64,000 bases of DNA from an uncultured Pseudomonadales bacterium (GCA_964574595.1 CAZNOF010000004.1:17337-81336); one strand, 5' to 3'; shown: positions 2,253-47,094, counted from the stretch's first letter. The notes: generated by a model not told the origin, from the sequence alone. Numbers and translations: made by a program.

Positions 2253-2554
2253 GACTGCTAAGTGCCGTTTTCTAGAATAAGTTGCGATAGATCAGTATTT
2301 TCAGCCCATATTCAGATTGAGAGATTTTTGAGAATTTTCTCTTTTAGACGAAAAACTGATCTTTTTTGATGTCTTTGTAGCACTTTTTGTACTAAATGAT
2401 TAGTAAAGTACTATTTATTCTGCAATTTCTCAAAATGTACTAGTTAAATAGGTATTTAAGTAGTTAGATCATCAATGATATAGACAATTTCTAGCAAGAC
2501 ATGATCACAATTGCCAACGTAACGCTTATGTAAAATTGGTTGGATCAGTCGAAA

Positions 2555-3334
2555 TTACAACGTTTCGTAACTTAGAGTCACAGTGTAGTTATATTGAGTG
2601 GATCCTGGTTGAATGTTGGTTGGACTGCCGCCACCACTGCCCTGGGCCACGTCTGCCGCTTTGGCCATCATTGGTACTACCATTTGACTTTGTGGAGCCT
2701 CTGTCACGTTAATGACTTTGCCTAACTGAACTCCAGACAGACGAGCTAACTCTTCTGCATTTTGGCGAGCATCTTGAATGGCTTGTTGTCTCGCTTCTTT
2801 TTGAACTTCCTTTTCTTTAGCATCACTCAAGGTAAATTGGATACCACTGATTTGATTCACACCAGCGGCGGTTGCCAGGTCCACCACCTTGTTTAACTTC
2901 TCAAAATCTTTTTCTTGAAGACTAACACTCAAGCTGATATCAACTGAGTAACCAATGATATTTTGGCCTTCCTTTTGATAATCGTAGTTTGGGTAGATGT
3001 TGTAGCTTGAAGTCTTGATGCCATCTTTACTGATACCTAAGTCAGTTAGCTGCTTGGTTAAAGAGTTGATAATGTTGTTGGCATTTGATTGAGCAGCCTT
3101 GATATCAGACTCTTTGCGAGAGATGCCTAAAGTGATTTCTGCTTTATCTGGTTGGGTGCTAATGCTGCTTTTGCCTGAGGCTACGAAGGCTTTGTCCTTT
3201 TGGACGGTTGTTTGACTGATGGAAATAGGAATTGGTGACACGTATTTACTGACGAGCACAATTGCCAGGACAGTCGCAGTGGCAATTAAAGCCGCCTGCA
3301 CAAAAAGGGTGGGAAGTTGTTTGAGGTTTAACAT
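2555..3334 (-). CDS. SIMPL-domain (DUF541, BP26-like) membrane-anchored periplasmic protein
   Basis: N-terminal TM helix. Segment ITLGISRKESDIKAAQSNANNIINSLTKQLTDLGISKDGIKTSSYNIYPNY...GYSVDISLSV is typical of the SIMPL family. AGGAGAA Shine-Dalgarno sits 5 nt upstream. Confidence 0.6.
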   Translation of the reverse strand: MLNLKQLPTLFVQAALIATATVLAIVLVSKYVSPIPISISQTTVQKDKAFVASGKSSISTQPDKAEITLGISRKESDIKAAQSNANNIINSLTKQLTDLGISKDGIKTSSYNIYPNYDYQKEGQNIIGYSVDISLSVSLQEKDFEKLNKVVDLATAAGVNQISGIQFTLSDAKEKEVQKEARQQAIQDARQNAEELARLSGVQLGKVINVTEAPQSQMVVPMMAKAADVAQGSGGGSPTNIQPGSTQYNYTVTLSYETL

Positions 3335-3419
3335 AAGTTCTCCTGTTTCTTAGTGTACTATAACCAATCCAGAAAGTCGTGGTAAAATATCTTTTATCGG
3401 TTTCAAGTAAACCAGAGAT

Positions 3420-3496
3420 GGGCCTGTAGCTCACTTGGCTAGAGCGCTGCTATGGCATAGCAGAGGTAAGGGGTTCGATTCCCCTCAGGTCCACCA
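3420..3496 (+). tRNA. tRNA-Ala (anticodon GGC), with encoded CCA
   Basis: Cloverleaf: acceptor GGGCCTG/CAGGTCC with a G3:U70 pair (the Ala identity element). Anticodon stem CTGCT/AGCAG with loop ATGGCAT. T-arm AGGGG-TTCGATT-CCCCT. 3' ACCA. Confidence 0.9.
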
Positions 3497-3538
3497 AAAT
3501 AGAACCTTCAATCAGATTTTTCCCATTCTTTTGCAGAA

Positions 3539-6523
3539 TTATCTCAGGCTTTTGCCATACTTATGGACTTCTCTAAAGTCCGGTGCTTTCAGGACTTTTT
3601 CCTTGAGGTTCGCGTACTTGTGCTTCAGTGTACCTCTATCAAACTTGGCATTTGCCAGCGTAGCAAAGATATTTAGCCAATCCGCCGGTTCCAAAATTCT
3701 GTCGTGAAGTGAAAGGATCGGATGACGCTCGTGCTTATCTTTCAGTTCAATACCAATTTTCTTAAGATACGCGGCTGCATTCTTCGAGGCCTCTTTTATT
3801 TGCTCAGTAATAAAGGCGTTAACTGCGTCAGGATCTTTCATACTGTGTCGCTCAAGGATATCAACAACTCCCTCGGGATTATTCATAATCAGCGAAGTCG
3901 CTTCAATTAAACTTTGACTATTTTCATCAACGGTTAAGTTATCAAGACTGTCCTCTACCGCTTCTTTATCGTAACCAACTACATCCGTAAGATAGTTGTA
4001 AGCCTGGAGTTTGGCTTTCTTGACGAGTTCCTCAGTGGAGTCATAGGTTAATTCGAGGTACGCGGCTTCCTCGTTAAGGAGGTCAGCTATCTTCTTTCGC
4101 TCCGTTACCTCACTAATATTGAGACGATCCGCATCCGCCACAATCAGCCGTTTCATAGCAACTTGAATCAGGCTTTTCTTTATTTCGGCAATTTTCCGAT
4201 TTTGAAAGTCAGTGGTTTCTTCATCAATTCGTTTAAACTTATCAAAATGTTCTGGGATTGCGCGTACAGCAAAGTTCTGAGGTTTATCCCACGCGCTTGG
4301 TTTCATGAACTCAACAGCCTGGGTGATGGCAGCCGTTTGTTCTGCCAGCCTCTTCTCCATCTCACCTACCACAGCATGAACTGCTGAAGTTCCTTTTGAT
4401 TCAAAGATAGTAGTTGTCAGTTTTAAGCGTGCTCTAGTGCTTTCAGTTTGAGCATTTGGATTTAACCGAGCATCGGTTTCTACATAGTTAAAGTCTTCTT
4501 CCAAGTCGTCCATCGAGTGATCTGCTAGATTCAAATGACTAACCGCTTCTGAAACCTCAGCTTGAAGCTGTGAAGTGGTATTGGAGACTAACTTGTCAAA
4601 GCGCTCCTTCCCTAAGACTGTGGCTAGGTTGTATGTCTCTGAAAATTGTTTCTGAACATAAAAAGGAATTGCTTTTACTAATGTTTGAGCTAGTACATCC
4701 GGCAAATCCTGACGGTCCATTTCAGCTATCTCTTGCCAATCACGTATCTGTTCAGTTTTGAATTTGGCAAAAACTTCTTGCGCTTTCTCAAGCAGGGTGA
4801 TTTCGGCCGAACTTTTTGGGGAAAATCGATTCCAGGTGGGCTCCATGTTGGGGTTGAACGAAGCAATCTGTGATGGCCTTAATCGATCAAACTGTTTTTT
4901 GCCATTTGTTTGAAACTCAGCCACCGCAGCTCTCAGTACCGCATACATATTTTTAATTGGTGTTTCTCGGTTCCCACTCTCAGTGTTGCTGAGAAGGATT
5001 GCTAAAAAGGAGTCAACTTTATACACTCTCTCAAGCTTTGATATGACTTCAGCTACTTTTTTAGAGATTTCTTTTTGAGGTATTTGTTCTCTTAAAAAAT
5101 CTTTTTCATTAAACAATTTGGTGGTCAGGTGTCCTAAGATGTCATTGTCGGTGACACCCACAGCTTTTAATTGCTCGGCAATTTTAAAGGTAGTGAAGTC
5201 CGTATTTAGTTGATCAACGGTACCTACATCATTCATTCTATCGACCATTATTTTGATAATCGTTCGATATTCTCTTGCTTGCTCAATAACCTTTGGGTTA
5301 GAAGTTGGTATGTTGATAATGTTGTCTAATGTCTGGATCAATTCGGATACATCTCTCTTTTGCAGAACGAGATTCTTCAATTTTTTAATCTCCTGAGCTG
5401 TTTGCTCAACGGCCTTTTTGGCAAGTTCCTGAGCTAATGTTCGGACCGCTTCGCGCACCTTAATGTCTGGAATTGCCTGTATTTTTTGAGTGGCATCTTT
5501 CTGATTAAGTATGTCTGCTTCAATCTCCATGACTTGATCAGCTAGCGCATCTTTGAAGTTATCTCTTAAGAAGTTAAACAAATCACTGAGATTGCGATCG
5601 TGGTGATTCATCAGTTTTTGAAGTTCATTGTTAAAATCTTGACGTATTCTGGCGATATCAAGGTTTGCTTTTGCCTGAGCTTTCGGAAGCAGGTTCTTTG
5701 TGGCCTGACGGATGATTGGGTTTTCGATGGCCGCGATCTGCTCCTGAATGAGTTCGGCGGTGGTGTCTTCTTCCCTGAGTCTGATAAGTAAGTTCGTGAG
5801 AATGTTCAAGTCATTGATCAATCCGTATTCACGATACTTTTGTTCCATCATTCGAATCACATTATCAAGATCATCTGTCTCGTTAGAAATATTTTGAAAG
5901 AAATATTCTTTTTGTTTTTCAATTCTTGCTTCTCCGGTGGGCAAACGTTTCAAGATAGCCTGTGAGACCTCAAGAACATCAGGATGTTGAAACGCCAGAG
6001 AGTGCTCAGAGATGTTCTTGCCATTGGCAAAGTCGGTTTGCAGTAGCTCAGCTTGGTGCCAGTCCGAAATGTATTGAGGGAATTTTTTTTGAAGTTGATA
6101 TAGCGCAGTAACAAGTGGTTGGAAGTCTACTACGCTGGAGTCTTTCCGCAACCTCCGTACTTTATCAATCTGGTTAAATTCAGCAAGTTTTTCACCTAAA
6201 ATTCGAGCTAGATTGTTTATGGCAGTATATAGTTGACCGCCCTCAGGTGTATTGATTAACAAGCTGAGTGGTTCAAGATCAGTGATGGCCGCAATCGCTG
6301 CCTTCTTAACCATTTCAGCGGGTGTACTGTCAGGTAGGCCAAGCATCTGCGTAAGTGACAATCGCTCATCCCCAACACTGCGGAATTTCTTAAGGAGCTC
6401 TACTCCCAGCGAAAGTTGACCAGATCTTGTCTCACGACGCGTGTCTTTTACGGGAGCTTCGGCACCATCGGCTTGAGGCTTATTGGCAGCCGCATCAGTT
6501 TTTCTAATATTCGATTCATTCAT
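3539..6523 (-). CDS. large (994 aa) hydrophilic, predicted coiled-coil-rich hypothetical protein; no signal peptide
   Basis: Uninterrupted 2985-nt ORF, E/K/L/Q-rich, no recognisable catalytic motifs. The start region is homologous to the start of the 8169..10097 gene (see findings). Confidence 0.5.
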   Translation of the reverse strand: MNESNIRKTDAAANKPQADGAEAPVKDTRRETRSGQLSLGVELLKKFRSVGDERLSLTQMLGLPDSTPAEMVKKAAIAAITDLEPLSLLINTPEGGQLYTAINNLARILGEKLAEFNQIDKVRRLRKDSSVVDFQPLVTALYQLQKKFPQYISDWHQAELLQTDFANGKNISEHSLAFQHPDVLEVSQAILKRLPTGEARIEKQKEYFFQNISNETDDLDNVIRMMEQKYREYGLINDLNILTNLLIRLREEDTTAELIQEQIAAIENPIIRQATKNLLPKAQAKANLDIARIRQDFNNELQKLMNHHDRNLSDLFNFLRDNFKDALADQVMEIEADILNQKDATQKIQAIPDIKVREAVRTLAQELAKKAVEQTAQEIKKLKNLVLQKRDVSELIQTLDNIINIPTSNPKVIEQAREYRTIIKIMVDRMNDVGTVDQLNTDFTTFKIAEQLKAVGVTDNDILGHLTTKLFNEKDFLREQIPQKEISKKVAEVISKLERVYKVDSFLAILLSNTESGNRETPIKNMYAVLRAAVAEFQTNGKKQFDRLRPSQIASFNPNMEPTWNRFSPKSSAEITLLEKAQEVFAKFKTEQIRDWQEIAEMDRQDLPDVLAQTLVKAIPFYVQKQFSETYNLATVLGKERFDKLVSNTTSQLQAEVSEAVSHLNLADHSMDDLEEDFNYVETDARLNPNAQTESTRARLKLTTTIFESKGTSAVHAVVGEMEKRLAEQTAAITQAVEFMKPSAWDKPQNFAVRAIPEHFDKFKRIDEETTDFQNRKIAEIKKSLIQVAMKRLIVADADRLNISEVTERKKIADLLNEEAAYLELTYDSTEELVKKAKLQAYNYLTDVVGYDKEAVEDSLDNLTVDENSQSLIEATSLIMNNPEGVVDILERHSMKDPDAVNAFITEQIKEASKNAAAYLKKIGIELKDKHERHPILSLHDRILEPADWLNIFATLANAKFDRGTLKHKYANLKEKVLKAPDFREVHKYGKSLR

Positions 6524-6563
6524 GATGAACTAAACTATATAACAAACCAAATTGGTTTGTCAT
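6516..6563 (-). other. 16-codon uORF (MTNQFGLLYSLVHHE) overlapping the start of the 994-aa gene, or a frame-shifted N-terminus; contains a perfect 9-bp-arm palindrome (6542..6560)
   Basis: Minus-strand ATGACAAACCAATTTGGTTTGTTATATAGTTTAGTTCATCATGAATGA. Its stop TGA overlaps the main ATG in the +1 frame. It is about 85% nt-identical to the first codons of the 642-aa gene (MAKQIGLLYSYER). Confidence 0.4.
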
Positions 6564-6604
6564 CTCTAAGAGTAGATGAGACCAGCTGGAATTGGTTGTG
6601 TTTT

Positions 6605-8146
6605 CTAGCGAATATCTTTCATTGACTGTTGTTTGAGGTGTTGGAATACTTGCTGATACAGTTTTGGTTCGATTTTGCGGCCTTTTCTCAAGACTTTTTC
6701 AGTCTCTCCCCGGCTGACGTCACCGGCGACTCGGAACTCAGCCTCAGAAGTTGTATGTAGCCGGAGGATTCTTCGGACAGTCTTGGCTCGGATGCCATCA
6801 TCGGTGATAGTAGTTTTTAATTCGTTATTCAGAGAGTTAGCTAACGAAGATACCACTGCAGTAGCTTCACTTGCGCTAATATCTCCACCGTCGTTCAGCC
6901 ATTTGAAATCGTTTTGATAAAGATAAAAATCACAGCCATCTGCCTCTACTCCACCCACATTCCGCGTGCCAACGATCAATAGATTATCTGGCCAGCCGCT
7001 CTGACTCTCGATATCTTTTCGGGCCCAATAAAAGTTATCATCTTTGTTCCCACCGGCACAGATAAATGTTTTTTCGGGAAATTGATTAGCGAGAGCCGCT
7101 AATTTTTTCAAGTTCTCAGCTGCCAATGCCTCGTTGTACGCCTCAATTCTTTCAGTCAAAAAGGAAGGTTCTTCATTGCTTAAGTCGCGAACAGTTTCAA
7201 TTCCCGCTGATGAGCCGGTCTTTTTATACTCGGCAATAGAGGCTTGGTGATACTCTGCATTTCTTTTGTTGTATTCATCTTCTGTCAGAATCTCTAATTC
7301 ATTTCCGTCTTTATCTACAGGCGTGTTCCCTTTAAAGTACTTTGGTTCATCTTCAGACTGAAGGATATAAAATGCGTCGTTTGGTTTTTCTTCTACAAAC
7401 TGAACTGACTTTGGCAAGTCTTTTGGGTATCGATAGATATATTTTTCTTGAGATTCGCCGACAATGAGACTCATATTAATTATTGGAACTTCGGTAGGCA
7501 GTTTGCGGATTGCCTCAGCAATCACATTTGTATCGATGACTGTTTTGGCTGTGATATTGCCAAGGTCATCGTACTCAAAAGAAGTGCTAATGGCGGGTTC
7601 GAGCGGAGTGATGTGCGGTGTTTCAACCGCAAAGCCATTTTGTTCGGCTGTTTGCACAAATGAGCCAGTGGTTAAGTCGCCGTGTCCTTTTTCAGTTGTC
7701 AACATTTTGTTGAGGATGGCGGTTTTAACTTCAGCTGGATCACTGCTCATGAAATAGGCTGAGTGATTCTCTGCGTACGCTTGAGATGTTACATCCATTT
7801 TGTCTGACCGATCCTCACTACCTAAGAGTTGATGAGTCATGCTTTTCACATCTTTATAAGTGAAGTCGATAAACTCCGTTTGAACTGACTGGGGTGCTTT
7901 TTCTTTATTCTTTTGGAGATCGATGCCTTCTGCGAAATCAGCTAGACCATTAGCGATGTCATTACTGACGAGTGGCAGAACCATACCAGCTTTAGCTACG
8001 TTCCCTACAAAGTCACGACGACTGGCATTGGCCGGTTTATCGTCAGCCGGATTAAAATACTGACGAATTCGGTCACGAACAGACAACCGTTTCTGTGATG
8101 GTTGTGATTCAGGCTGTGGAGTTGGCACTTCAGACATCGTAGACAC
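6605..8146 (-). CDS. hypothetical protein (513 aa), probably co-transcribed with the upstream 642-aa gene (22-nt gap)
   Basis: Long ORF with no signal peptide. Pro/Ser/Gln-rich N-terminus. No confident motif. Confidence 0.5.
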   Translation of the reverse strand: MSTMSEVPTPQPESQPSQKRLSVRDRIRQYFNPADDKPANASRRDFVGNVAKAGMVLPLVSNDIANGLADFAEGIDLQKNKEKAPQSVQTEFIDFTYKDVKSMTHQLLGSEDRSDKMDVTSQAYAENHSAYFMSSDPAEVKTAILNKMLTTEKGHGDLTTGSFVQTAEQNGFAVETPHITPLEPAISTSFEYDDLGNITAKTVIDTNVIAEAIRKLPTEVPIINMSLIVGESQEKYIYRYPKDLPKSVQFVEEKPNDAFYILQSEDEPKYFKGNTPVDKDGNELEILTEDEYNKRNAEYHQASIAEYKKTGSSAGIETVRDLSNEEPSFLTERIEAYNEALAAENLKKLAALANQFPEKTFICAGGNKDDNFYWARKDIESQSGWPDNLLIVGTRNVGGVEADGCDFYLYQNDFKWLNDGGDISASEATAVVSSLANSLNNELKTTITDDGIRAKTVRRILRLHTTSEAEFRVAGDVSRGETEKVLRKGRKIEPKLYQQVFQHLKQQSMKDIR

Positions 8147-8168
8147 ATTCCTTAGAACTGTAGGTAGC

Positions 8169-10097
8169 TTACTTTACATTGCTAAACACTTCACCGAGTG
8201 TGTTAAATAAATCCATGATATCTTCAGATCGAGAGATGGTACTGAAGTCGTCACTGGTGAATTCAAGCGCTCCTTCAACGAATGGGTTGACTCGGTTTAA
8301 ACGAGTATCTCTCGATATAAAGTTCTGAATTCGCTCCATATCTGTGCCTGGATATGTATCAGTTGGTAGCTGATTTACGGCGGCTTCAATCTGTGGGGTG
8401 AGTTCCTGGGCTTTTTGAAAAACGATTGATGGATTTGCTTTTTCACCTAAAGCTCTATGTATATATGGTTTGGCAACATCAGTGAGTTTGAGGATTAAAT
8501 CTCTTTTCAGATCTGCTCTCATCTGGTCAAGCTCTTTCACCCAATCCTTCAGCTCACTATCCTTATAATTCTGATACATCTTTTCAGCGATCTCTCTTAA
8601 TGCTGGTGTTATGATTTTATTTAAGACTGCCTCATCCATTCGAAATTTAAACTCGCCGTGTCGCTCTGGTGGTAAGGCAAAGAAGGCAGATTTCTGTTCT
8701 GTTACATTCTTCTTAAGAAGTTCCAAGTTATCATGCGCTTGTTTTAACGTGGGCACCTGATCTTTATTCTCTGCCAAAATGCTTAGGCACTCATCTAATG
8801 TGGTCGCCTCAGCAGCTCGTTTGGTGATCGCAGCTTCAATAGTTAACTTGGCTTCTGGACTCAACTCATTCCAAATTTTATCAGCTCTTTTAGCTGCCAA
8901 CTGAACGATCCTGTCAAGAATTTCTGGCTCTTTGATTGATGTACCAATCCATTCACGAATTCCATTTTCATCTAAAGGTGTCATATTTCTGTTTTTTCGT
9001 GCCTCAACCATTCCCTCAAATCGATCTAAAGTAATCATGTAATCATAAGCGAGCTGGGACATGGTTATTTCCGCCTCATTCGTCGCAGAGTATGGTTTAC
9101 TAAACTCTTGGAAAACTTTCCTTGCGTCATCGAAGTTTCTGACTCCCCCACCCAAGATAGTTCTGATCATGGAATCTTTTAACTGATCCAAGCTGGCTTC
9201 TGTTCGGCCAGTGTTTGTCTGATCATCAGAGAAATCGACCTTAAACTGTCTTGGAGCATCAATTGAAGTCTCCATCTGATCAAATGGCACACTTTCCGGA
9301 TTCACTGTATCTGGTCTGGTTGCGTCAACTTCAAAATGAGTCATATCAGATTCGGCGTCAGGATCAGTGTCCATCTCACCCACTGGTTCTGGCCTGGCGG
9401 AATCTTCACCGTCTTGAGGCTCTTTCCCCGGAGTTGTATCCATCTCACCGATGGGTTCTGGTCTGGCGACCTTGTATTTTCCATCTCCAATTTCGTCTGT
9501 ACGGAGTCCCTTATTGATAACTCTTTTTCTGATAATTTTTTGGGAAACCTCAGCCGCATAGCCTGCCAGGTTATCAACCATGATATTCATGATCGTGTCG
9601 GACTGCAGATAGTTTTCCAGAGCATCGTGAATATACTCACGAATACCCTGTTGTTCAGGGTTGAATTCAAGGAGAGCTTCGAGTTGTCCTGCAGTACCGG
9701 TTAATACTGACAAATATTGAGTTGCGGCTTGCTTTAAATATTGCTCTTCTTCTTTGTCTGAATCAGCCATGTTGGCGAGAGTGCTCAAATAATCGACGAG
9801 ATCTTTATAACTCCCTGCGGAAGCCATCGTTTTTTCGAGAGCCTTTGAGTAAACGTCGTTCACTGACATCTCTTTTCCAAGATCTCTTCCCTTGTCATCT
9901 TTTCTCTCGTACTTGGCAAAGTCGTCTCTAAGTGTCGTTTGTCTTCTATCCAAGCCAGCCATCTGCTTGGCAATGGTAGCATCTCTTATGGCTTCAGCTT
10001 CTTCATGGGTGTCAACTTCTTGTACTGGTTGGATAGGGCTGTGCTTGGCTTCATTCATACGTTCATAACTATATAACAAACCAATTTGCTTTGCCAT
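8169..10097 (-). CDS. hypothetical acidic protein (642 aa) with an internal tandem repeat ARPEP[IV]GEMDT[TD]P
   Basis: Long ORF with a conserved N-terminus MAKQIGLLYSYERMNEAKH. Repeat units are encoded around 9350..9480. Confidence 0.5.
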   Translation of the reverse strand: MAKQIGLLYSYERMNEAKHSPIQPVQEVDTHEEAEAIRDATIAKQMAGLDRRQTTLRDDFAKYERKDDKGRDLGKEMSVNDVYSKALEKTMASAGSYKDLVDYLSTLANMADSDKEEEQYLKQAATQYLSVLTGTAGQLEALLEFNPEQQGIREYIHDALENYLQSDTIMNIMVDNLAGYAAEVSQKIIRKRVINKGLRTDEIGDGKYKVARPEPIGEMDTTPGKEPQDGEDSARPEPVGEMDTDPDAESDMTHFEVDATRPDTVNPESVPFDQMETSIDAPRQFKVDFSDDQTNTGRTEASLDQLKDSMIRTILGGGVRNFDDARKVFQEFSKPYSATNEAEITMSQLAYDYMITLDRFEGMVEARKNRNMTPLDENGIREWIGTSIKEPEILDRIVQLAAKRADKIWNELSPEAKLTIEAAITKRAAEATTLDECLSILAENKDQVPTLKQAHDNLELLKKNVTEQKSAFFALPPERHGEFKFRMDEAVLNKIITPALREIAEKMYQNYKDSELKDWVKELDQMRADLKRDLILKLTDVAKPYIHRALGEKANPSIVFQKAQELTPQIEAAVNQLPTDTYPGTDMERIQNFISRDTRLNRVNPFVEGALEFTSDDFSTISRSEDIMDLFNTLGEVFSNVK

Positions 10098-10113
10098 CTG
10101 CTAGACTATACAT

Positions 10114-12498
10114 ATGTTGCAAAAAGCTCCGGAAATTACAGGTTTATCTTCAGCCCAAGTTCAGACTCAAATAAATGAAGGTCATCAGGTCAAATTACCA
10201 CTTCGCTCCAACCGAACGTATTGGAACATTATTCAAACCAACGTCTTTAACGTCTACAACGTGATCTTAATTGTTTCATCGTTGTTGGTCTTGTTGCTCA
10301 AAGGCAGCAAGGATGTCCTGGTAGCATTGACGCTGGTGTTAGCCAATATTGGCATTGGTCTTTTTCAAGAAATTCGAGCGAAGAGAACGTTGGATAAGTT
10401 GGCTACGCTGCAAACGCACGTGGTTCATGTTCGCCGGAATGGTCAAACAATGGAGATCCCACTGGCCACATTAGTCCAGGGCGATATCATTGAACTTTTT
10501 CCTGGCGAGCCAATTGTGGCTGACGGCAAGCTCCTCTACTCCGATAGTTTAGAGTTAGATGAATCTTCTCTAACAGGTGAATCAGAATCGGTGCCCAAGA
10601 AAGAACACGAGGAAGTCACTTCCGGAGCCTACTGTTTGGCTGGTTTTGGATTAATGAAAGCTGAAAAAGTGGGTGAGAAAAGTAGTCTCTACGAGTTAAC
10701 TGAAAAAGCCAAAAGTTTCCGTACCTCTCAAACCAGTTCTGAAAAATGGTTGAAGAAATTATTTCAATTTTTGCTCTATACGATTTTGATCTTAGCACCA
10801 CTTACATTAATTAGTGGGATAAATCAAGGTTTTTCTATACCACAAACCCTAACAAACGTCGTGAATTTAGTCAGCAGTTTAATCCCGCAAGGCATGATTG
10901 TGAGTATGACAATTTTATTTGCTTACGGGGTTGTGAATATTAGTAAACAAAATACGCTCATTCAGCGAGTCAACGTGATTGCGATTATGGGGACGATAAC
11001 TTTGTTGTGTGCTGACAAAACCGGCACGCTGACAACCAACCAACTGTCACTAGAAAAAATTATTCCTCTCAACGATCATCCCCTCTCTAAAATCAAAGCC
11101 GATCTCGTCCACTTCACCCAGCATGTTTCTTGGGCCAATAAAACCATGCAAGCCATCGCTACATTCTTGACCACTGAACCACATAAAGACACACCTCAAT
11201 TGATGAAAACTGCGGAAATTCCATTTACTTCCGAACGCAAATGGGGTGGCATGAGTTTTGAGGGCTTGTCATTAGTCTTGGGTGCGCCTGATATTTTGAC
11301 GACAGATGAAAAAATATTAGACCAGGTCACTGAGCTGGCCAAAAAAGGTTTCCGTGTCTTGGCTTTAGCTGAGTCAGAGCTTCCTCTTCAAAACAAAGAA
11401 GTCTTACCGAAACAATTGAAAGTCGTAGCATTGCTTACTTTCCAAGACCATCTTCGAACCGATGTAAAAGAGACAATTGCCGCCCTGGCCAAACAACATA
11501 TTCAACTTAAAATTATTTCTGGTGACAGTGCGGAAACGATTCGCAGTATTGCCGCTCAACTGCATTTGCCAATCTCATATTTATACCAGCAGTCAGACTT
11601 AGTTGATGTAGATCCAGACGAATTTTCTCGGAAAGTGAAGAATGGTCAATTCTTTGCCCGCATTACGCCTTCAATGAAGGAACGTATCATTGCGGAGCTC
11701 GTAGCTCAAGGTGAGTTAGTGGCCATGGTTGGTGATGGTGTCAATGATGTGCGGGCTCTGAAGAAATCTCACGTGGCGATTGCCGTCAATGAGTCATCCC
11801 AAATTACCAAAGATGTGGCAGATATTATTTTATTGGATAACTCTTTTGCTTCATTACCAAAGGCGATTGAAGAAGGTCGTGACATCACCCAGCGCGTTTA
11901 CGCAGTGGCTAAAATCTTTTTTGTGAAAGTGATTTATTTAATTACCCTGTTCTTATTAGCCGGCTTTGCCAGCTTTGCCTTCCCAATTTCTTTGCGTCAA
12001 ACGACTTGGCTCGGCTTCATTGTGGTTGGTGTACCTACCGCGTTGATCACCTTTAAAATTTTGCGACCAAGTGCCACCAAAAACATTCAAAAAGGCCTGG
12101 TACAGTACACGTTAACTGCCGGCATTATTGGTGGATTATTTATGGCGCTGATCATGATTGCCACACAGCTGATCTTCCAAAACGACATTGAAACGAGTCG
12201 CACGCAGGTGAGTTTATTTGCCTCTGTTTTTAGTAGCTTTATTTTGTTCCAAGTCCACGGTATCAACATTTTCTCATTCCCATCGGTGAAGAAAAATTGG
12301 CCATCATTTTTGATTATTGCTGCCATCGGCGCGATTGCGATTTTGTTCCCAAGTGAGTTAACACCTCGTGCATTTCAGTCAGCCCACTTAGACAGTTTAG
12401 ATTGGCTTATTTTGGCCTTTGGAATTGCCGGAAGCATAATGTTACTCCGCTTCATTCTGAAACGCGTAGCACGGTTCGTCGAGGCAAATGAATGGTAA
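10114..12498 (+). CDS. cation-transporting P-type ATPase
   Basis: DKTGTLT phosphorylation motif (CADKTGTLTTN). Hinge motif VGDGVNDVRALKKSHVAIAV. TM bundles before and after the cytoplasmic domain. Confidence 0.85.
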   Translation: MLQKAPEITGLSSAQVQTQINEGHQVKLPLRSNRTYWNIIQTNVFNVYNVILIVSSLLVLLLKGSKDVLVALTLVLANIGIGLFQEIRAKRTLDKLATLQTHVVHVRRNGQTMEIPLATLVQGDIIELFPGEPIVADGKLLYSDSLELDESSLTGESESVPKKEHEEVTSGAYCLAGFGLMKAEKVGEKSSLYELTEKAKSFRTSQTSSEKWLKKLFQFLLYTILILAPLTLISGINQGFSIPQTLTNVVNLVSSLIPQGMIVSMTILFAYGVVNISKQNTLIQRVNVIAIMGTITLLCADKTGTLTTNQLSLEKIIPLNDHPLSKIKADLVHFTQHVSWANKTMQAIATFLTTEPHKDTPQLMKTAEIPFTSERKWGGMSFEGLSLVLGAPDILTTDEKILDQVTELAKKGFRVLALAESELPLQNKEVLPKQLKVVALLTFQDHLRTDVKETIAALAKQHIQLKIISGDSAETIRSIAAQLHLPISYLYQQSDLVDVDPDEFSRKVKNGQFFARITPSMKERIIAELVAQGELVAMVGDGVNDVRALKKSHVAIAVNESSQITKDVADIILLDNSFASLPKAIEEGRDITQRVYAVAKIFFVKVIYLITLFLLAGFASFAFPISLRQTTWLGFIVVGVPTALITFKILRPSATKNIQKGLVQYTLTAGIIGGLFMALIMIATQLIFQNDIETSRTQVSLFASVFSSFILFQVHGINIFSFPSVKKNWPSFLIIAAIGAIAILFPSELTPRAFQSAHLDSLDWLILAFGIAGSIMLLRFILKRVARFVEANEW

Positions 12499-13204
12499 AA
12501 GTAGTGCCAGTGCCCGGCTTAGAAACAAACTCTAAGCTACCTCGGAAATGCGCTTCAATAATTTCGCGTGAGACATACAAGCCAATGCCCGTCCCCTGCT
12601 CTCCGGATTTGGTGGTGAACAGCGGTTCAAAGATTTGGCTTTGATCTTCTTCGCTCATGCCGCATCCCCAGTCCTGAACAGTGATCAAAATTTCTGCCGT
12701 TTCTTCTCTGATGGTGATAACTACCTTCTGGCCTTGGCAGTTTGATGGATAGGCGTCGAGGGCATTAGAAATCAAGTTCATCATGACTTGAAAAAATTGA
12801 GTTGAGTTGCCAAAGTGCTTGATGTCTTTCTGTTTGTTAATTTCTATTTTGATACTTTTAGACACAGCCTTCGATTTGAATAAAGAGACTGCCTGCTCAA
12901 TTTCCTGAGCCAACCAAAACTCACTCAAGACTTTCTTTTGCTGAATGTGCTGACGCGCCAATTGCAGAAATCTCACCATCCGTTGGGTTCCATCGAAGGC
13001 TCGGTTAATTGCTGTTTGAAATTCGGCGAAGTCTTCGTTGTCCATGCCTAATGATTGAGCTTTGAGTTCTTCTAAATTGAGCAGCACAATATTCAGAGGT
13101 GTTGCAAGATCGTGGAGTAAGCCAGCGGAGAGTCTGCCGAACTCGGCAAATTGTGACAGCTCTGCCAAGTTTTGCGCTTCAATTGAGTTGGTATCCAAGA
13201 CCAT
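12452..13204 (-). CDS. sensor histidine kinase (cytoplasmic, no TM segment)
   Basis: H-box LLHDLATPLN. N-box NLISNALDAY. G-boxes DWGCGM and GTGIGL. The 3' end overlaps the convergent ATPase gene by 47 nt. Confidence 0.75.
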   Translation of the reverse strand: MVLDTNSIEAQNLAELSQFAEFGRLSAGLLHDLATPLNIVLLNLEELKAQSLGMDNEDFAEFQTAINRAFDGTQRMVRFLQLARQHIQQKKVLSEFWLAQEIEQAVSLFKSKAVSKSIKIEINKQKDIKHFGNSTQFFQVMMNLISNALDAYPSNCQGQKVVITIREETAEILITVQDWGCGMSEEDQSQIFEPLFTTKSGEQGTGIGLYVSREIIEAHFRGSLEFVSKPGTGTTFTIHLPRRTVLRVSE

Positions 13205-13856
13205 AAATACTTTTAATAAATATTGATGTATCGTGTGAATTTATGAGAAGTTTTTTGCGAAGTTGTCTGATGTGAACGTCTATAGCATTGGTGTTTGGTT
13301 CGTCAGTTTCATCCCAAATATGTTCCAACAACATATCTCGCTTAATAATTTGGCCGCGGTGACGCACAAAGAATTCGAGAATCTGTCGCTCTTTTCTTCT
13401 GAGGTGAATTTCTTGATTGGCTTTCGTGACGGTGCCACTATTTATGTCGATGGTGATGTCGCCGTACTGCAAAGTGCGCTGTGGAGTCAGAAGTGGGTTT
13501 CGCCTAAATAGTGCTCGAATTCTGGCCAGTAATTCTTTTGTGGAAAAGGGTTTTGTCAGATAGTCGTCTACTCCGCCGTCTAAAGCTAGGACTTTGTCCT
13601 CAACTTCGCTGCGACCAGTCAGCATCAGGATGGGAGTTTTACAGTGATCGGCGCGGAGCTTGATACAAAGCTCTACTCCTGTTTCGTCTGGAAGATTAAA
13701 ATCGACGATCATGGCATCGTACTCATGAATTGCCGCCAGGTACTCACCTCGCTCAGCCGTGTAAGCAGTGTCCACAAGATACCGCGATTGCAAGGCATGA
13801 GTGAGCGTTTCCACGAGCTCAACATCGTCGTCTATGATCAGTAGGCGCATGTTCAA
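13179..13856 (-). CDS. OmpR/PhoB-family response regulator
   Basis: Receiver domain (LIIDDD...D...LMLTGR...K) plus winged-helix trans_reg_C domain (IHLRRKERQILEFFVRHRGQIIKRDMLLEHIW). Overlaps the kinase start by 26 nt. Confidence 0.8.
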   Translation of the reverse strand: MNMRLLIIDDDVELVETLTHALQSRYLVDTAYTAERGEYLAAIHEYDAMIVDFNLPDETGVELCIKLRADHCKTPILMLTGRSEVEDKVLALDGGVDDYLTKPFSTKELLARIRALFRRNPLLTPQRTLQYGDITIDINSGTVTKANQEIHLRRKERQILEFFVRHRGQIIKRDMLLEHIWDETDEPNTNAIDVHIRQLRKKLLINSHDTSIFIKSIYGLGYQLN

Positions 13857-13895: not shown

Positions 13896-16778
13896 TTACT
13901 CCGTCGGGTCTTCAGCTGGCTTAGCAAGCAGAATCTCTTCAGCTTCCTTCATGGTTAAGGCCACAGCTACGACTTTGTCACCGGCTTTTGGTCTCATCAA
14001 GATGACGCCTTGAGTTGGACGAGTCAGCACTGGAATGCTCTTGTCCTCTACTGAGAGTTTAATCATTTGTCCACTTTGAGTGGTGATCACCACTTCTTCA
14101 TGATCTTGAGTGACCATCATGGCTGCAACTACGTCACCAGTTTTGGCTGTGATCTCAGCAACCTTGACGCCTTGACCAGCACGTTTCTGGACTGGGTATT
14201 GAGACAAGACAGTTCGTTTGCCCAACCCTTTTTCAGTAATCAAAAGGAGTTGTTGGAAGGCTTTTTTCTTGCCTTTCTCTGGAGCCACAACTTCGCCACT
14301 GGCTGGGAATGCTTCCACACCAACCACGTAGTCGTCTTTCTTGAGTTCAATTCCCTTGACACCTTGGGTATCGCGTTGTGAATTCTTGACTTCTTTTTCA
14401 GTGAAGCGAATAGATTTACCTTGATGAGTGATCAACATAATGTGATCGTCACCACTGGTTAACTTGCCCCAGACGAGTTCGTCATTATCTTTCAGCAAGA
14501 TAGCGATGATACCGTTCTGGCGAATATTGTCATAGAGTTTAACTGCGGTTTTCTTGACCAATCCGTTGCGAGTAGCTAAGGTAATAAACTTCGTCTTATC
14601 TTTTTCCTCATCGAGGATTAAGATTGATTTAACAGTCTCTTCTCCACGTAGGTTGATTAAGTTGACTAAGGCAGTTCCCTTGGCTTGTCGGCCAGATTCT
14701 GGAATTTCGAAGGACTTCAATTTAAAGACACGACCCTTGTTCGTGAACATGAACAGACTGTCATGGGTTTGTGCAGTCAAGATACTTTGCACGGCATCTT
14801 CATCTTTGGTTTTGATACCAATTGCACCTTTACCACCACGTTGTTGTGATCGTAAGACACTTGGGTTGTATCGTTTAATGTAACCGGTTTGAGTCACGGT
14901 AATAACAGTTGGTTCATTGGCAATTAAGTCTTCTTCACTGAACTCACCAATCTTGCCTTTAATTAATTTGGTGCGACGAGCATCACCGTACTCAGTCATG
15001 ATCTGTTTGGTTTCATCAGCAATCACTTTCATGACGGATGATGGATGGTTCAGTAACTCGATTAAGAGACCCATTTGATCCTTAATAGCCTTGTACTCAT
15101 CTTCAATTTTCTTGCGCTCAAGAGCAGCTAAGCGTTTCAACTGCATTTCCAAAATGGCCAAAGATTGCAACTCACTCAAGCCAAATTTCTTCATCAAAGC
15201 AGCTTTAGCGGTATCCGTATCAGCTGATTTGCGAATGGTGGCAATTACTTCATCTAAGTTGTCTAGAGCGATTAACAAACCCTCCAAAATGTGGGCGCGT
15301 TGACGTGCTTGGTTCAATTCATATTGTGAGCGGCGGACGATGACGAGTTGGCGATGACCAATGTACTCCATCAAGATTTGCTTGATGTTCATGAGTTGTG
15401 GCGTACCTTCACTGGTTAAGGCCACCATGTTCATTGGGAAACTGGTTTGTAATTCAGAGTATTTAAATAATTTGTTTAAGACAACTTTTGGCCGTGCATC
15501 GCGCTTTAATTCAATGGTGATCTGCATGCCTGTTCGGTCGGAGTCATCATTTAAGTCTTTAATACCTTCAATTTTTTTGTTGCGAACTAAATCGGCAATC
15601 TTCATGATCAACTTGGCTTTGTTGACTTGGTATGGAATCTCTGTCACTAAAATTTGGAAGTTACCTTTTTTATCTTCAACAATGTTTGTCTTGGCACGGA
15701 TCACCACTTTGCCTTTACCAGTGTGGTAGCCTTCTTTAATTGCCTGGAAGTCATAGATAATACCGCCGGTTGGGAAATCTGGTCCGTTCACGTATGACAT
15801 GATTTCATCAATCTCAATTTCCGTGGTGAACTTACCAGCTAGCTGAGTTGGTGGTGTTGCCAAAATGACATCAATAATTTCATTTGTTTTCTTGATATCT
15901 TCTGTCTTCAAAGAGTGCATGGAAGGCACTTTTTCAATCTTCTTATCCATGCCATTTTCGGCACTTCCCTTTTCTAACATGGCCTCAATAGCTTTACAGA
16001 CCTCAGTCAAGTTATGTGGTGGAATCTTGGTTGCCATACCAACGGCAATACCTTCAGAACCCATTAAGAGTAAGTTTGGTAATCTAGTTGGTAAGACGAC
16101 AGGTTCTTGTAGTGATCCATCAAAGTTGTTGGTGAAGTTGACAGTTTCTTTATCCAGATCCGTCAGCATTTCTTTGGCAATTTTGGCCAAACGAGCTTCG
16201 GTGTAACGCATAGCAGCTGGACTATCGCCATCAACAGATCCAAAGTTACCCTGACCATCGATCAAAGGGTATCTCATACTGAAATCTTGACCTAAACGAA
16301 CAAGCGCCATGTAGACCGCCGAGTCACCATGCGGGTGATATCTACCTAAAACGTCTCCCACAATACGACCACATTTTTTGTATGGGCCGGTGTGGTGAAA
16401 GCCAGTCTTGTACATGGAGAATAAAATACGTCGGTGAACCGGTTTCAAACCATCGCGCACATCTGGTAAAGCCCGAGCCACGATCACACTCATTGAGTAG
16501 TCTAGGTAAGACTTCTCCATCTCGTTGATGATAGAGATGTGTTTAATCTTGCCAAAGCGACCTTCACTAATCGAATTGATAGCTGGACCTTCTGCCTCAT
16601 TGGAAACTAAGGTATCGCCAGACATCCGAGGAGCTTCCACCGCTTCATCTTCCGTGACGAGCTCTTCCATCTCCTCTGCTACAACCGGATCAGTCCCTTC
16701 AGAGGGCTCGGTCTTTTCAACGTCGTCATCTAAGGACTCTACTGTTACAAGTGGTTTCTTTTTTTTATCGTCTGCCAT
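13896..16778 (-). CDS. gyrA: DNA gyrase subunit A with an acidic N-terminal extension of about 75 aa
   Basis: Motifs SYLDYSMSVIVARALPDVRDGLKPVHRRILFSM, QDFSMRYPLIDGQGNFGS and the active-site Tyr region. C-terminal beta-pinwheel repeats. Confidence 0.9.
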   Translation of the reverse strand: MADDKKKKPLVTVESLDDDVEKTEPSEGTDPVVAEEMEELVTEDEAVEAPRMSGDTLVSNEAEGPAINSISEGRFGKIKHISIINEMEKSYLDYSMSVIVARALPDVRDGLKPVHRRILFSMYKTGFHHTGPYKKCGRIVGDVLGRYHPHGDSAVYMALVRLGQDFSMRYPLIDGQGNFGSVDGDSPAAMRYTEARLAKIAKEMLTDLDKETVNFTNNFDGSLQEPVVLPTRLPNLLLMGSEGIAVGMATKIPPHNLTEVCKAIEAMLEKGSAENGMDKKIEKVPSMHSLKTEDIKKTNEIIDVILATPPTQLAGKFTTEIEIDEIMSYVNGPDFPTGGIIYDFQAIKEGYHTGKGKVVIRAKTNIVEDKKGNFQILVTEIPYQVNKAKLIMKIADLVRNKKIEGIKDLNDDSDRTGMQITIELKRDARPKVVLNKLFKYSELQTSFPMNMVALTSEGTPQLMNIKQILMEYIGHRQLVIVRRSQYELNQARQRAHILEGLLIALDNLDEVIATIRKSADTDTAKAALMKKFGLSELQSLAILEMQLKRLAALERKKIEDEYKAIKDQMGLLIELLNHPSSVMKVIADETKQIMTEYGDARRTKLIKGKIGEFSEEDLIANEPTVITVTQTGYIKRYNPSVLRSQQRGGKGAIGIKTKDEDAVQSILTAQTHDSLFMFTNKGRVFKLKSFEIPESGRQAKGTALVNLINLRGEETVKSILILDEEKDKTKFITLATRNGLVKKTAVKLYDNIRQNGIIAILLKDNDELVWGKLTSGDDHIMLITHQGKSIRFTEKEVKNSQRDTQGVKGIELKKDDYVVGVEAFPASGEVVAPEKGKKKAFQQLLLITEKGLGKRTVLSQYPVQKRAGQGVKVAEITAKTGDVVAAMMVTQDHEEVVITTQSGQMIKLSVEDKSIPVLTRPTQGVILMRPKAGDKVVAVALTMKEAEEILLAKPAEDPTE

Positions 16779-16798: not shown

Positions 16799-17302
16799 TT
16801 ATTTACTGCCGAATTTTGCTTGGGCCTCTTCAATCTCCTTCATTGCTTCAGCTTTTCCGACAAATTTGTTAATTTTGACCCATTTTCCTGGCTCTAAATC
16901 TTTGTAGTGTTCGAAGAATTGTTTGATTTTGTTTAAGCGCCATTCTGGGACGTCACTTAAATCTTCCCAACTGCCGCACTCGATATCCATCTTGGCTTTA
17001 GCAGGAACACATAAGACTTTGTGATCGATACCTTCTTCGTCTTCCATTTCCAACATGCCAATGACGCGGGTTTTGATCCACATGCCTGGCAAAATTGGTT
17101 GGCAAGTTAAGACTAAAGCGTCTAACAAATCGCCATCTTTGCCTTTAGCACCTTCAATGGCACCGTAGTTCTCTGGGTAGAACATAGCGGTTGGCACAAA
17201 TCGGTCAACGTAAATTCGACCATTTTCCTCATCTTGCTCGTACTTGGTGTTTGAGCCAGCTGGGATCTCAACTAAAACGTGTAATGTTTGACTATCTGCC
17301 AT
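16799..17302 (-). CDS. ppa: inorganic pyrophosphatase (family I)
   Basis: 167 aa. Motifs YPENYGAIE, DGDLLDALVL and conserved Asp/Lys residues. Confidence 0.9.
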   Translation of the reverse strand: MADSQTLHVLVEIPAGSNTKYEQDEENGRIYVDRFVPTAMFYPENYGAIEGAKGKDGDLLDALVLTCQPILPGMWIKTRVIGMLEMEDEEGIDHKVLCVPAKAKMDIECGSWEDLSDVPEWRLNKIKQFFEHYKDLEPGKWVKINKFVGKAEAMKEIEEAQAKFGSK

Positions 17303-17328
17303 ATTGCTCCTTGTATATTATGTTTGTT

Positions 17329-20173: not shown

Positions 20174-20623
20174 ATGAAACTGAATCAGATTCTTAACAAA
20201 AGGTATGAAAGTGTGATTCTGGATAGGGTTTTGGATTTTATAAAGAATCTTCTCGAAAACTTCATAATTTACGCATTGCTGACTTTTGCAATTAAATTAT
20301 TTTTAATCATTAATTTCTTGAGTTCCATATTTACCATAAGCTACTTTTCAGTTGCTTTTTATCTTGGAGATTTTATAGAGAATTTTTATTACTTAACACT
20401 TTTTACTTTATTTTTAATTCCAATAGTGGATGTCCCACTGTTCTCGTTGGTCTATCTTCATAACAGTAAAAAAGAAAGAACCGTTAAAAATTGGTTACTG
20501 GCTTTTATTGCTGGTTTAATTGGGGGTGTATTGGTAATTTTTCTTACTATTGTAGTTTTATACCTTTTGGTTCAACTTTTATTGTCGGGATATTTGAAAA
20601 CATCTTACCAATTAACTAAGTAA
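20174..20623 (+). CDS. small integral membrane protein, paralog 1 of 3
   Basis: 3-4 predicted TM helices. Conserved block YLTLFTLFLIPIVDVPLFSLVYLHNSKK....LLAFIAGLIGGVLVIF is shared with the next two ORFs. Confidence 0.5.
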   Translation: MKLNQILNKRYESVILDRVLDFIKNLLENFIIYALLTFAIKLFLIINFLSSIFTISYFSVAFYLGDFIENFYYLTLFTLFLIPIVDVPLFSLVYLHNSKKERTVKNWLLAFIAGLIGGVLVIFLTIVVLYLLVQLLLSGYLKTSYQLTK

Positions 20624-29985: not shown

Positions 29986-30036
29986 TTCAGGTTTGGAATG
30001 TAGACAGCACTCTGATTTTTCGCTAAGCTTATTACC

Positions 30037-45254: not shown

Positions 45255-45303
45255 GCTATCTGCCCCTATTTACTCCACACCTCGCCTTTGCTAAGCTTAT
45301 CTC

Positions 45304-47050: not shown

Positions 47051-47094
47051 TGGTCGCTATTTACTCTGCTCTTCCCCTTTGCTAAGCTTATCCT

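Follow-up and report, generated by a model that had tools for sequence, protein, structure and literature searches.

We analyzed a segment of about 50 bases that recurs before two minus-strand genes of the window (the whole stretch of 64,000 nucleotides that was analyzed), and this module is best read as a compact promoter of the housekeeping-sigma (sigma-70) type plus the actual start codon of the genes in a small, rapidly diverging paralogue family in Patescibacteria (CPR). We put the probability of this reading at roughly 70%, and from sequence pattern and conservation we infer that the promoter is active, where transcription starts and what operator function there may be. The element as such is most likely a commonplace of gene regulation, found here in an unusual bacterium. 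The earlier note had listed a shared cis-regulatory DNA element as the last of several hedged options; conservation over five copies bears out that part, and the promoter itself had not been named there.

The two copies in the window share so many bases that the chance expectation of such a pair is nil. They form the longest direct repeat of the interval 2300..10400 (D1; 42 nt, 83% identity, ungapped), and the 22-mer CAAWTTGGTTTGTTATATAGTT occurs at 6533..6554 and 10067..10088 only, with 0.00 occurrences expected in shuffles. Hand counts on alignment A6 gave ~80% identity with one 1-nt indel over the full 51-nt block, 30 identical bases of 33 from AGATG to TATAGTT, and complete identity (9/9) over ATGAATGAA at the start codon. 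The minus-strand strings that had been quoted at both genes were exact on re-reading, and the shared segment described with them is real. Its second copy, placed in the earlier note at 10060..10105, lies at 10050..10097, with weak similarity reaching to 10108. The features of the locus are listed in the table.

Table. Features of the module and of the surrounding genes (positions counted from the first base of the window)
Feature	Position	Strand	Remark
Module copy A, ATGACAAACCAATTTGGTTTGTTATATAGTTTAGTTCATCATGAATGAA	6515..6563	-	Before the 994-aa gene; repeat D1; aligned with four other copies
-35-like hexamer ATGACA	6558..6563	-	5/6 to TTGACA; holds the 'ATG' of the supposed uORF
-10-like hexamer TATAGT	6534..6539	-	10 nt 5' of the main ATG; inside invariant GTTTGTTATATAGTT
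Alternative extended -10, TGtTATATA	6536..6544	-	994 copy
Perfect palindrome ACAAACCAA-N-TTGGTTTGT	6542..6560		Between the hexamers; possible operator
Actual start of 994-aa gene, ATGAATGAA (MNE)	6515..6523	-	Start kept in all copies
994-aa gene	3539..6523	-	Orphan all-helical protein; distant paralogue of the 642-aa protein
513-aa orphan gene	6605..8146	-	Twin-arginine-like RRDFVG motif; between the two paralogues, same direction
642-aa ORF as called (longest ORF)	8169..10097	-	First 13 codons probably promoter DNA
Module copy B, ATGGCAAAGCAAATTGGTTTGTTATATAGTTATGAACGTATGAATGAA	10050..10097	-	Before the 642-aa gene; repeat D1; in the five-copy alignment
-35-like hexamer ATGGCA	10092..10097	-	Its ATG is where the 642-aa ORF is annotated to start
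-10-like hexamer TATAGT	10068..10073	-	9 nt 5' of the ATG at 10058
Probable true start of the '642-aa' gene, ATGAATGAA (MNEAKH...)	10050..10058	-	629-aa product
P-type ATPase gene	10114..12498	+	Divergent; ATG 16 nt from the module

Next, the anatomy of the module was compared with that of a promoter. Read in the direction of the genes, it would comprise AG-ATG[A/G]CA with a -35-like hexamer, an 18-nt spacer, TATAGT as the -10 hexamer, 9-10 variable nt and ATGA[A/G]TGAA, which encodes Met-Asn/Ser-Glu; alternatively, a 16-nt spacer would be combined with an extended -10 (TGtTATATA). ATGACA-18-TATAGT of the 994 copy (6563..6534) scored 10/12 and was the top sigma-70-like site in the 8.1 kb of 2300..10400, and ATGGCA-18-TATAGT of the 642 copy scored 9/12 and ranked third in the same interval, which was not enriched in promoter-like sites overall (20 sites vs. 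13.8 ± 3.6 in shuffles). Both hexamers and their spacing are retained in all five copies described below, and the 18-nt spacer is within the 16-18 nt criterion. TATAGT is followed after 9-10 nt by the ATG, within the ~6-10 nt taken from PMC6028130 as the criterion for a leaderless or short-leader promoter, and no Shine-Dalgarno motif (GGAG, GAGG or AGGA) is present. As this promoter layout comes without a Shine-Dalgarno sequence, RNA polymerase would start 0-5 nt 5' of the ATG and yield a leaderless or nearly leaderless mRNA. A recognised sign of leaderless transcription is a Pribnow box located ~10 nt before the start codon (PMC6028130), and in M. tuberculosis an mRNA counts as leaderless if it begins no more than 5 bp from the start codon (PMC3898074). 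For the module genes, a leader of 2-5 nt appears likelier than none at all, because the gap of 9-10 nt exceeds the modal 6 nt of the other genes in these loci. The promoter reading would also predict MNEAKHSPIQPVQEVDTHEEAEAIR as the N-terminal peptide, with or without the initiator Met, rather than MAKQIGLLYSYER. An invariant GTTTGT 5' of the -10 hexamer and an invariant ATG at the -35 position were additionally observed, neither of which is demanded by a plain promoter model.

Many further genes of this genome were found to have the same arrangement at their 5' side. At 5-11 nt before start codons, strong -10-like hexamers are concentrated (17 of 44 hexamers fall in these 7 of 45 positions, ~6.8 being expected, in a small sample that counts the orthologues in three loci), and an SD-like motif precedes just 18 of 82 genes. 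The rpsP gene has TATAAT, 8 nt and ATG; the response regulator gene has TGaTATACT, 6 nt and ATG; pilB, the pilin gene and others show the same abutting layout, and two further genes, dissimilar to each other, likewise have a -35/-10 module in common directly before the ATG. Since the genome uses this layout often, as in rpsP, the response regulator gene and the pilin gene, leaderless or near-leaderless mRNA is likely, and many mRNAs of this Patescibacteria lineage are probably of that kind. The module resembles known leaderless promoters (lambda PRM-cI; those of Mycobacterium and Deinococcus; GeneMarkS-2 'group C') in having a -10 hexamer ~10 nt before the ATG and no Shine-Dalgarno sequence. 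It differs from them in its gap, which suggests the short leader, in keeping nearly every base from paralogue to paralogue and from genome to genome, and in the near-palindrome that it contains; moreover, it is known here as a sequence pattern. The module thereby adds an example of promoters that sit right against start codons in this lineage, and in such genomes longest-ORF gene calling can absorb promoter DNA into proteins.

Three more copies were found in related uncultured Patescibacteria (CPR) genomes, at loci L088, L007 and L091, and were aligned with the two of the window; the five come from very few genomes related by descent, so that the counts over them are not independent. Of the matches to a second search pattern in metagenomes, one was a true copy (L091) and two were due to chance (L089, L090), and the first pattern, GTTTGTTATATAGTN{8,13}ATGAATGA, had no match in genome or metagenome contig collections, which evidently lack these genomes. 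A GyrA-based genome scan placed the lineage in the Patescibacteria, with best matches at 70% identity, and found the module at 0 of these 80 loci; a viral scan gave chance matches only, in unrelated sequence (L092, L093). Conservation runs from AGATG through ATGA.TGAA with unalignable flanks on either side; within these limits the DNA is 80-100% conserved across the five copies, and the 15-nt block GTTTGTTATATAGTT is invariant in all of them, third codon positions included. The module region is also the best conserved local DNA between relatives. The window and L088 agree by 95-97% over the module and its upstream flank (10205..10056), by ~85% over the ATPase coding sequence and by ~50% in the middle of the gene. 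Similarly, L007 and L091 show 3 differences in the 48-nt module (hand count) vs. 47-80% in neighbouring coding DNA.

By contrast with the DNA, the frame that leads through the module is broken. It is fused to the gene in one of the five copies (the 642-aa gene of the window), shifted in one (994) and stopped in three; in L088, L007 and L091, an in-frame TAA directly follows TATAGT (M..LLYS-stop), 6 nt 5' of the main ATG. The 642-aa gene reads through because one base differs from the close orthologue in L088 (TAA>TAT), and the shift in the 994 copy is due to a 1-nt indel. All five genes begin ATGA[A/G]TGAA (MNE/MSE). The called N-termini of the homologues agree with this start: the L088 orthologue P0008 begins MNEAQH after the in-frame TAA, the paralogue P0009 begins MNEP, and both align from residue 1 of an MNE-started query. 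The 642-aa ORF is thus probably annotated 13 codons too far upstream, because the upstream frame runs open into the gene in that window copy only; the corrected product should have 629 aa and begin MNEAKH. The supposed peptide MxxQ[IF]GLLYS would then be promoter DNA read as codons.

Furthermore, the two genes behind the module are related, which overturns the earlier description of their products as otherwise unrelated proteins. BLASTP aligned the 642- and 994-aa proteins with an E value of 5e-6, and hhalign aligned the 642/591 pair with the 994-aa protein with a probability of 94.7% (E 5.7e-8, 225 columns); the real 994-aa sequence scored above 1000 locally shuffled versions. The two proteins are therefore fast-diverging paralogues with a homologous region of ~225 residues, and this paralogy accounts for the same promoter before both genes. 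The genes would be old duplicates whose coding sequences diverged nearly past recognition, while the promoter was kept under purifying selection. At the 642 copy, the ATG of the ATPase gene on the other strand is so near to the module that two promoters would stand back to back.

Among the alternatives, a short uORF or leader peptide (M-x-x-x-x-x-L-L-Y-S) that couples termination to reinitiation at the SD-less main ATG, and that could also regulate, survives best, and we nevertheless consider it unlikely. The upstream ATG plus at least nine sense codons is kept in all five copies, and the uORF ends by the TAA 6 nt before the main ATG in three, by a TGA overlapping it in one and by fusion in one. 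The main ATG has no SD, the uORF ATG of L091 directly follows the stop of the gene before it (TAGATG), and the 642-type copies carry a TATAGT 7 nt 5' of the upstream ATG. In the 994 copy, the uORF MTNQFGLLYSLVHHE-stop overlaps the annotated start in the +1 frame by its TGA, as the earlier note had read it. However, its stop and length are not conserved (10 codons with TAA in three copies, 15 codons with TGA in one, read-through in one), no promoter-like element 5' of it is common to all five copies, and it would be off the transcript if the TATAGT inside it is the promoter. The substitutions also argue against a selected peptide. In 'codons' 2-6, 5/5 variable sites are non-synonymous, a number too small for a formal test, and the four 'codons' 7-10 vary at none of their three positions; this pattern indicates a constraint on nucleotides and not on the peptide. 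As a test for a leader peptide, the alignment showed a conserved start, an unconserved length and stop, and no excess of synonymous changes. Leaders of the trpL/ermCL type likewise end at the main start or within a few nt of it, as the 10-15-codon ORF does, but the module has no conserved stop, attenuator or terminator hairpin, conserved RNA structure or peptide-level selection.

It is rather improbable that the module is a dedicated cassette of promoter, palindromic operator and 10-codon coupling uORF, serving a hypervariable mosaic family in an episymbiotic CPR bacterium. Were this so, it would permit coordinated or switchable expression of rapidly diversifying proteins, perhaps of host interaction, and the module would be a functional analogue of the constant 5' regions of variable surface-protein genes in mycoplasmas. 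The Mycoplasma vlp/vsp/vsa surface-protein families combine a conserved 5' expression region with variable bodies. Here, too, a reduced genome carries divergent or mosaic paralogues with a conserved promoter and first codons; in contrast to the mycoplasmas, there are two genes per locus, ~50 nt are conserved, and signal peptide and lipobox are missing. No homopolymer tract, invertible element or silent cassette was found at the module locus.

The near-palindrome between the hexamers may also bind a dimeric regulator. That the block is mainly such an operator, co-regulating the paralogues through half-sites AT[G/A]ACAAA and TTTGTTAT 9 bp apart, is improbable, and less probable than a dedicated cassette, although repressor sites are typically located between -35 and -10. 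The perfect 9+1+9 palindrome at 6542..6560, which had been reported from the 994 copy together with two mismatches in the 642 copy, was confirmed in both respects. All four copies compared carry the inverted repeat ATGACAAA...TTTGTTAT, with the same bases conserved in L091, and the invariant GTTTGT is not accounted for by the -10/-35 consensus alone. Nevertheless, the other copies keep only the outer ACAAA/TTTGT arms, whose pairs are invariant without compensatory changes, and the inner arms are unconserved, with 2-3 mismatches that arise from changes in one arm only. The 64 kb contain a single ACAAA-N9-TTTGT, where 0.34 would be expected by chance and 31 of 100 shuffles have at least one match, so there is no wider regulon in the window; searches for the palindrome half-site and the -10 core gave no further sites there either. 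No candidate regulator was found, and the neighbouring OmpR-type regulator is expected to bind direct repeats. An operator role would in any case be compatible with the promoter reading. The RNA hairpin proposed for both transcription units holds for the 994 copy alone: single-sequence folding gave z-scores of -2.64 for it and of 0.17, -0.11 and 0.48 for the other three copies tested. In the RNAalifold structure (-6.75 kcal/mol), the hairpin showed neither compensatory pairs nor covariation, and Rfam had no match at E<=1 in the segments.

We also considered that the module is a constant junction for recombination or gene conversion, which would swap hypervariable gene bodies behind one expression site, and we regard this as very improbable. 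The gene bodies behind it are indeed mosaic and hypervariable between close relatives, with identity falling from 95% to ~50% and then recovering, and genomes with GyrA proteins at least 90% identical differ in the genes that fill the slot beside tRNA-Ala and a tyrosine recombinase gene. However, the breakpoints of the hypervariable segment lie ~120 nt or more inside the gene and not at the module, only two copies exist in 64 kb, with no silent cassettes or further repeats, and all relatives possess the recombinase gene, which is conserved and XerC/D-like. We also rejected an att site or the end of a mobile element, as there are no flanking repeats.

We give almost no credence to a genuine N-terminal targeting or export tag on both proteins, reached in the 994 copy by a programmed +1 frameshift or hidden by an assembly indel. 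The 642-aa ORF is open through the module, and the loss of a single base would fuse the 994 copy, but the tag MxxQ[IF]GLLYS...MNE is in frame without a stop in one of five copies, the in-frame TAA falls inside it in three, including the near-identical orthologue of the 642-aa gene (a single T/A difference), homologues (P0008, P0009) are called from MNE, and the peptide is, on our own reading of the sequence, not recognisable as a signal peptide. As in the prfB-type +1 frameshift, the frame-0 stop of the 994 copy overlaps the +1-frame start of the long ORF; unlike it, the module has no CUU-UGA-C-like shifty stop and no internal or upstream SD, and the 0/+1 relation is confined to the 994 copy, the frames coinciding in the other four. 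An indel artefact masking a common N-terminus is contradicted by the stop codons in L088, L007 and L091, which make an assembly indel irrelevant. With these results, a false lead of tag, frameshift or assembly error is removed.

Finally, we searched for relatives of the encoded proteins. Word-indexed searches with the 994-aa protein and the 642/591 alignment returned the queries themselves only, and a full HMMER search against 1.84 billion representatives returned two relatives only. Pfam and NCBIfam had no match for the 642-, 994- and 513-aa proteins, nor had a PDB sequence search for the 513-aa protein. AF2 modelled the 629-aa protein as all-helical, with a mean pLDDT of 60.8 and a C-terminal domain at 72-91, and Foldseek gave no match below E = 1 for the model against the PDB. 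The protein family is of greater interest than the shared segment and possibly bears on symbiont-host interaction. In this orphan all-helical family, the coding sequence turns over very fast (mosaic segments of ~50% identity between strains that agree by 85-97% in the adjoining DNA), while the promoter is frozen.

A minus-strand segment of about 50 nt is common to the starts of the 994-aa and 642-aa genes of the window and was analyzed together with three copies from other genomes and metagenomes. Its 22-mer core was found at only two sites, one per copy (0.00 expected by chance), and the pair formed the longest direct repeat within 2300..10400 (42 nt, 83%). Both minus-strand reads therefore confirmed two shared strings near gene starts, as the earlier note had observed. 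The perfect palindrome in the 994 copy (6542..6560) and a short upstream reading frame (uORF, 15 codons) overlapping the 994-aa start in the +1 frame were likewise found. This module is a real, conserved element. The best explanation is an ordinary promoter together with its start codon, which two paralogues both inherited before diverging; promoters in this genome lie directly against start codons.

Features of the window and the five aligned module copies
Feature	Positions	Strand	Details
994-aa ORF	3539..6523	-	ORF listing
513-aa ORF	6605..8146	-	ORF listing; between the 642- and 994-aa ORFs
642-aa ORF	8169..10097	-	ORF listing
P-type ATPase gene	start 10114	+	divergent
OmpR-type response regulator	13179..13850	-	TGaTATACT, 6 nt, ATG
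Further gene with canonical -10	20174..20623	+	
rpsP	50660..51067	-	TATAAT, 8 nt, ATG
Module copy, 994-aa gene	6566..6512	-	gagATGACAAACCAATTTGGTTTGTTATATAGTTTAGTTCATCATGAATGAATCG
Module copy, 642-aa gene	10100..10047	-	cagATGGCAAAGCAAATTGGTTTGTTATATAGTTATGAACGTATGAATGAAGCC
Module copy, L007 591-aa gene (MAG GCA_040384245.1)			ATGACAAAGCATTTTAGTTTGTTATATAGTTAAGATTGCATGAATGAA; upstream frame ends at TAA; called start ATGAATGAA (MNEP)
Module copy, L088, protein P0008 (261 aa, 1.2-kb contig)			ATGGCAAAGCAAATTGGTTTGTTATATAGTTAAGAACGTATGAATGAA; upstream frame ends at TAA; called start MNEAQH
Module copy, L091			ATGACAAAGCATTTTGGTTTGTTATATAGTTAAGATTACATGAGTGAA; upstream frame ends at TAA; called start MSE

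In a simple consensus scan, ATGACA-18-TATAGT (6563..6534) scored 10/12 and ranked first among all sites in 8.1 kb, and ATGGCA-18-TATAGT (10097..10068) scored 9/12. The -35 hexamer, ATGACA or ATGGCA, spans the ATG of the uORF; therefore, the supposed uORF start codon is part of the -35. Between TATAGT and the main ATG of the MNE or MSE start lie 9-10 nucleotides with little conservation, and an alternative extended -10, TGtTATATA, sits two bases upstream of TATAGT. No Shine-Dalgarno (SD) motif precedes the main ATG in the five aligned copies. In published work, the signature of leaderless bacterial transcription is a Pribnow box located about 10 nt from the start codon (PMC6028130), and for M. 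tuberculosis, transcripts that start at most 5 bp from this codon count as leaderless (PMC3898074). Because of this distance and signature, we infer that RNA polymerase would use the module as a promoter, with the transcript beginning 0-5 nt upstream of ATGAATGAA and its equivalents at the main ATG. For the 642-aa gene, the start annotated at 10097 is probably an error, and translation likely begins at 10058.

The L088 copy was obtained by an exhaustive HMMER search with the 642-aa protein, which found only two relatives, and the L091 copy by a metagenome pattern scan. The conserved stretch of the five copies runs from AGATG to ATGA.TGAA, and the flanks on both sides are unalignable. Within the module, L088 differs from the 642 copy only by TAT to TAA. 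The 15-nt GTTTGTTATATAGTT is unchanged in 5/5 copies, would-be third codon positions included, and all five variable sites in "codons" 2-6 alter the amino acid. Compared with L088, the window showed ~85% identity over the coding part of the ATPase gene but 95-97% over the module and its upstream flank; inside the 642-aa gene it was ~85% in the first 100 nt, ~50% in the next 450 nt, and 85-93% thereafter. By our own count, L007 and L091 differ at 3/48 module positions, whereas identity is 47-80% in the coding DNA next to it and ~50% beyond the start. Taken together, the invariance, the amino acid-changing sites and the identity profiles argue for selection on the module as a DNA or RNA sequence, not as a peptide.

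The most serious rival, translation of the uORF with termination and reinitiation, appears unlikely. An ATG and nine sense codons are present in all copies, the stop, where present, lies at or adjoining the main ATG, and the L091 upstream ATG abuts the stop codon of the preceding gene. However, the uORF end is not conserved, the substitution pattern speaks against it, and no upstream promoter is common to the copies. The promoter may also overlap a binding site for a regulator; this would account for the invariant GTTTGT, and the outer arms AT[G/A]ACAAA and TTTGTTAT are retained in all copies, although the inner palindrome arms are not and the 64 kb contain no further match to the half-site pattern. 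An RNA hairpin held up only as an unusually good fold of the 994 copy (z -2.64): the other three tested copies gave z ~0 with differing minimum-energy folds, RNAalifold returned a weak hairpin with no compensatory changes, and the module segments had no Rfam match. The shared N-terminal tag, programmed frameshift and assembly indel raised in the earlier note are all incompatible with an upstream frame that is stopped in 3/5 copies, shifted in 1/5 and fused in 1/5.

The two proteins, previously taken as unrelated, are orphans in a 5.8-billion-protein database. The 642-aa protein is homologous over its whole length to the L007 591-aa protein (24% identity, E 1e-41). The 994-aa protein matched these two by BLASTP in the same region (E 5e-6 and 2e-6, respectively) and the pair by hhalign (probability 94.7%, E 5.7e-8, 225 columns); with both queries, its real sequence beat 1000/1000 locally shuffled versions. 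The genes are therefore old paralogues that share the module because they retained the ancestral promoter and first three codons, while the remainder diverged. The family is predicted to be all-helical, with neither a family nor a fold match. The 642-aa gene is a mosaic at 9463..9935 (-): over ~450 nt its identity to the L088 orthologue is only ~50%, between flanks of 85-97%; L007 and L091 show the same pattern. Such a profile is suggestive of very rapid diversification, or of replaced segments, in this orphan family. The 642-aa gene also has a 69-nt (23-aa) unit repeated in tandem at 9367..9468 (-), ARPEP[IV]GEMDT[TD]P..., which is kept in the L088 orthologue.

The arrangement of the module recurs often in this genome. 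Strong -10-like hexamers clustered 5-11 nt before start codons (17/44 matches in 7/45 positions; ~6.8 expected), also with the studied elements left out (13/40), and an SD-like motif preceded only 18/82 surveyed genes. Leaderless mRNAs seem common in this Patescibacteria (CPR) lineage. Their apparent prevalence and the hypervariable mosaic protein family are more interesting than the module itself. Clear cases include pilB and a pilin gene (30019..30033, CGCTAAGCTTATTACC-ATG), and rpsP, the response regulator and others carry a canonical -10 6-8 nt before ATG without SD. Genes starting at 45304 and 47095, whose proteins lack similarity (BLASTP E 3.6), have a common -35/-10 module ending 6 nt before ATG (45264..45303 and 47055..47094, +; CTATTTACTC-N10-CCTTTGCTAAGCTTATC-NN-ATG). 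It resembles -35 TTTACT, 17 nt, TGc-TAAGCT, 6 nt, ATG, and looks like another leaderless-type promoter.

The ATPase ATG lies 16 nt from the -35 hexamer at 10097..10092, and the ATPase gene has its own -10-like TAGACT, whose complement overlaps another minus-strand TATAGT. Together they would form back-to-back, overlapping divergent promoters, and the 10092..10130 stretch is 95-97% conserved in L088. At its 3' end, the ATPase ORF (+) overlaps a convergent histidine-kinase ORF (-) by 47 nt as called (12452..12498).

Relatives of the window's GyrA (13896..16778) at ≥90% identity came from a few metagenomes and one MAG, GCA_040384245.1; among GTDB species representatives, the best matches reached 70%, the named ones being Patescibacteria, Amesbacteria and Beckwithbacteria MAGs. 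These matches place the source among uncultured Patescibacteria (CPR). The G+C content is 42%. Close relatives keep the order gyrB-ppa-gyrA ... P-type ATPase, a variable slot, tRNA-Ala(GGC), SIMPL and XerC-like recombinase. Slot content varies among genomes with GyrA ≥90% identical: 642-, 513- and 994-aa genes in the window (3500..10100), 182- and 591-aa genes in L007 (18130..20800), and a single 506-aa gene in L001-L003 (L001, 17200..19200), the shorter L004-L006 contigs ending before or within the slot. The 513-aa orphan and the L001 506-aa protein (17272..18792) had no significant BLASTP similarity (E 0.49). Both contain an 'AGGN' motif; the former has a twin-arginine-like motif, SRRDFVGNVAKAG, and the latter RRNFLRVIVVG. 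The GTG start of the 513-aa gene at 8146 is doubtful because an ATG lies at 8137.
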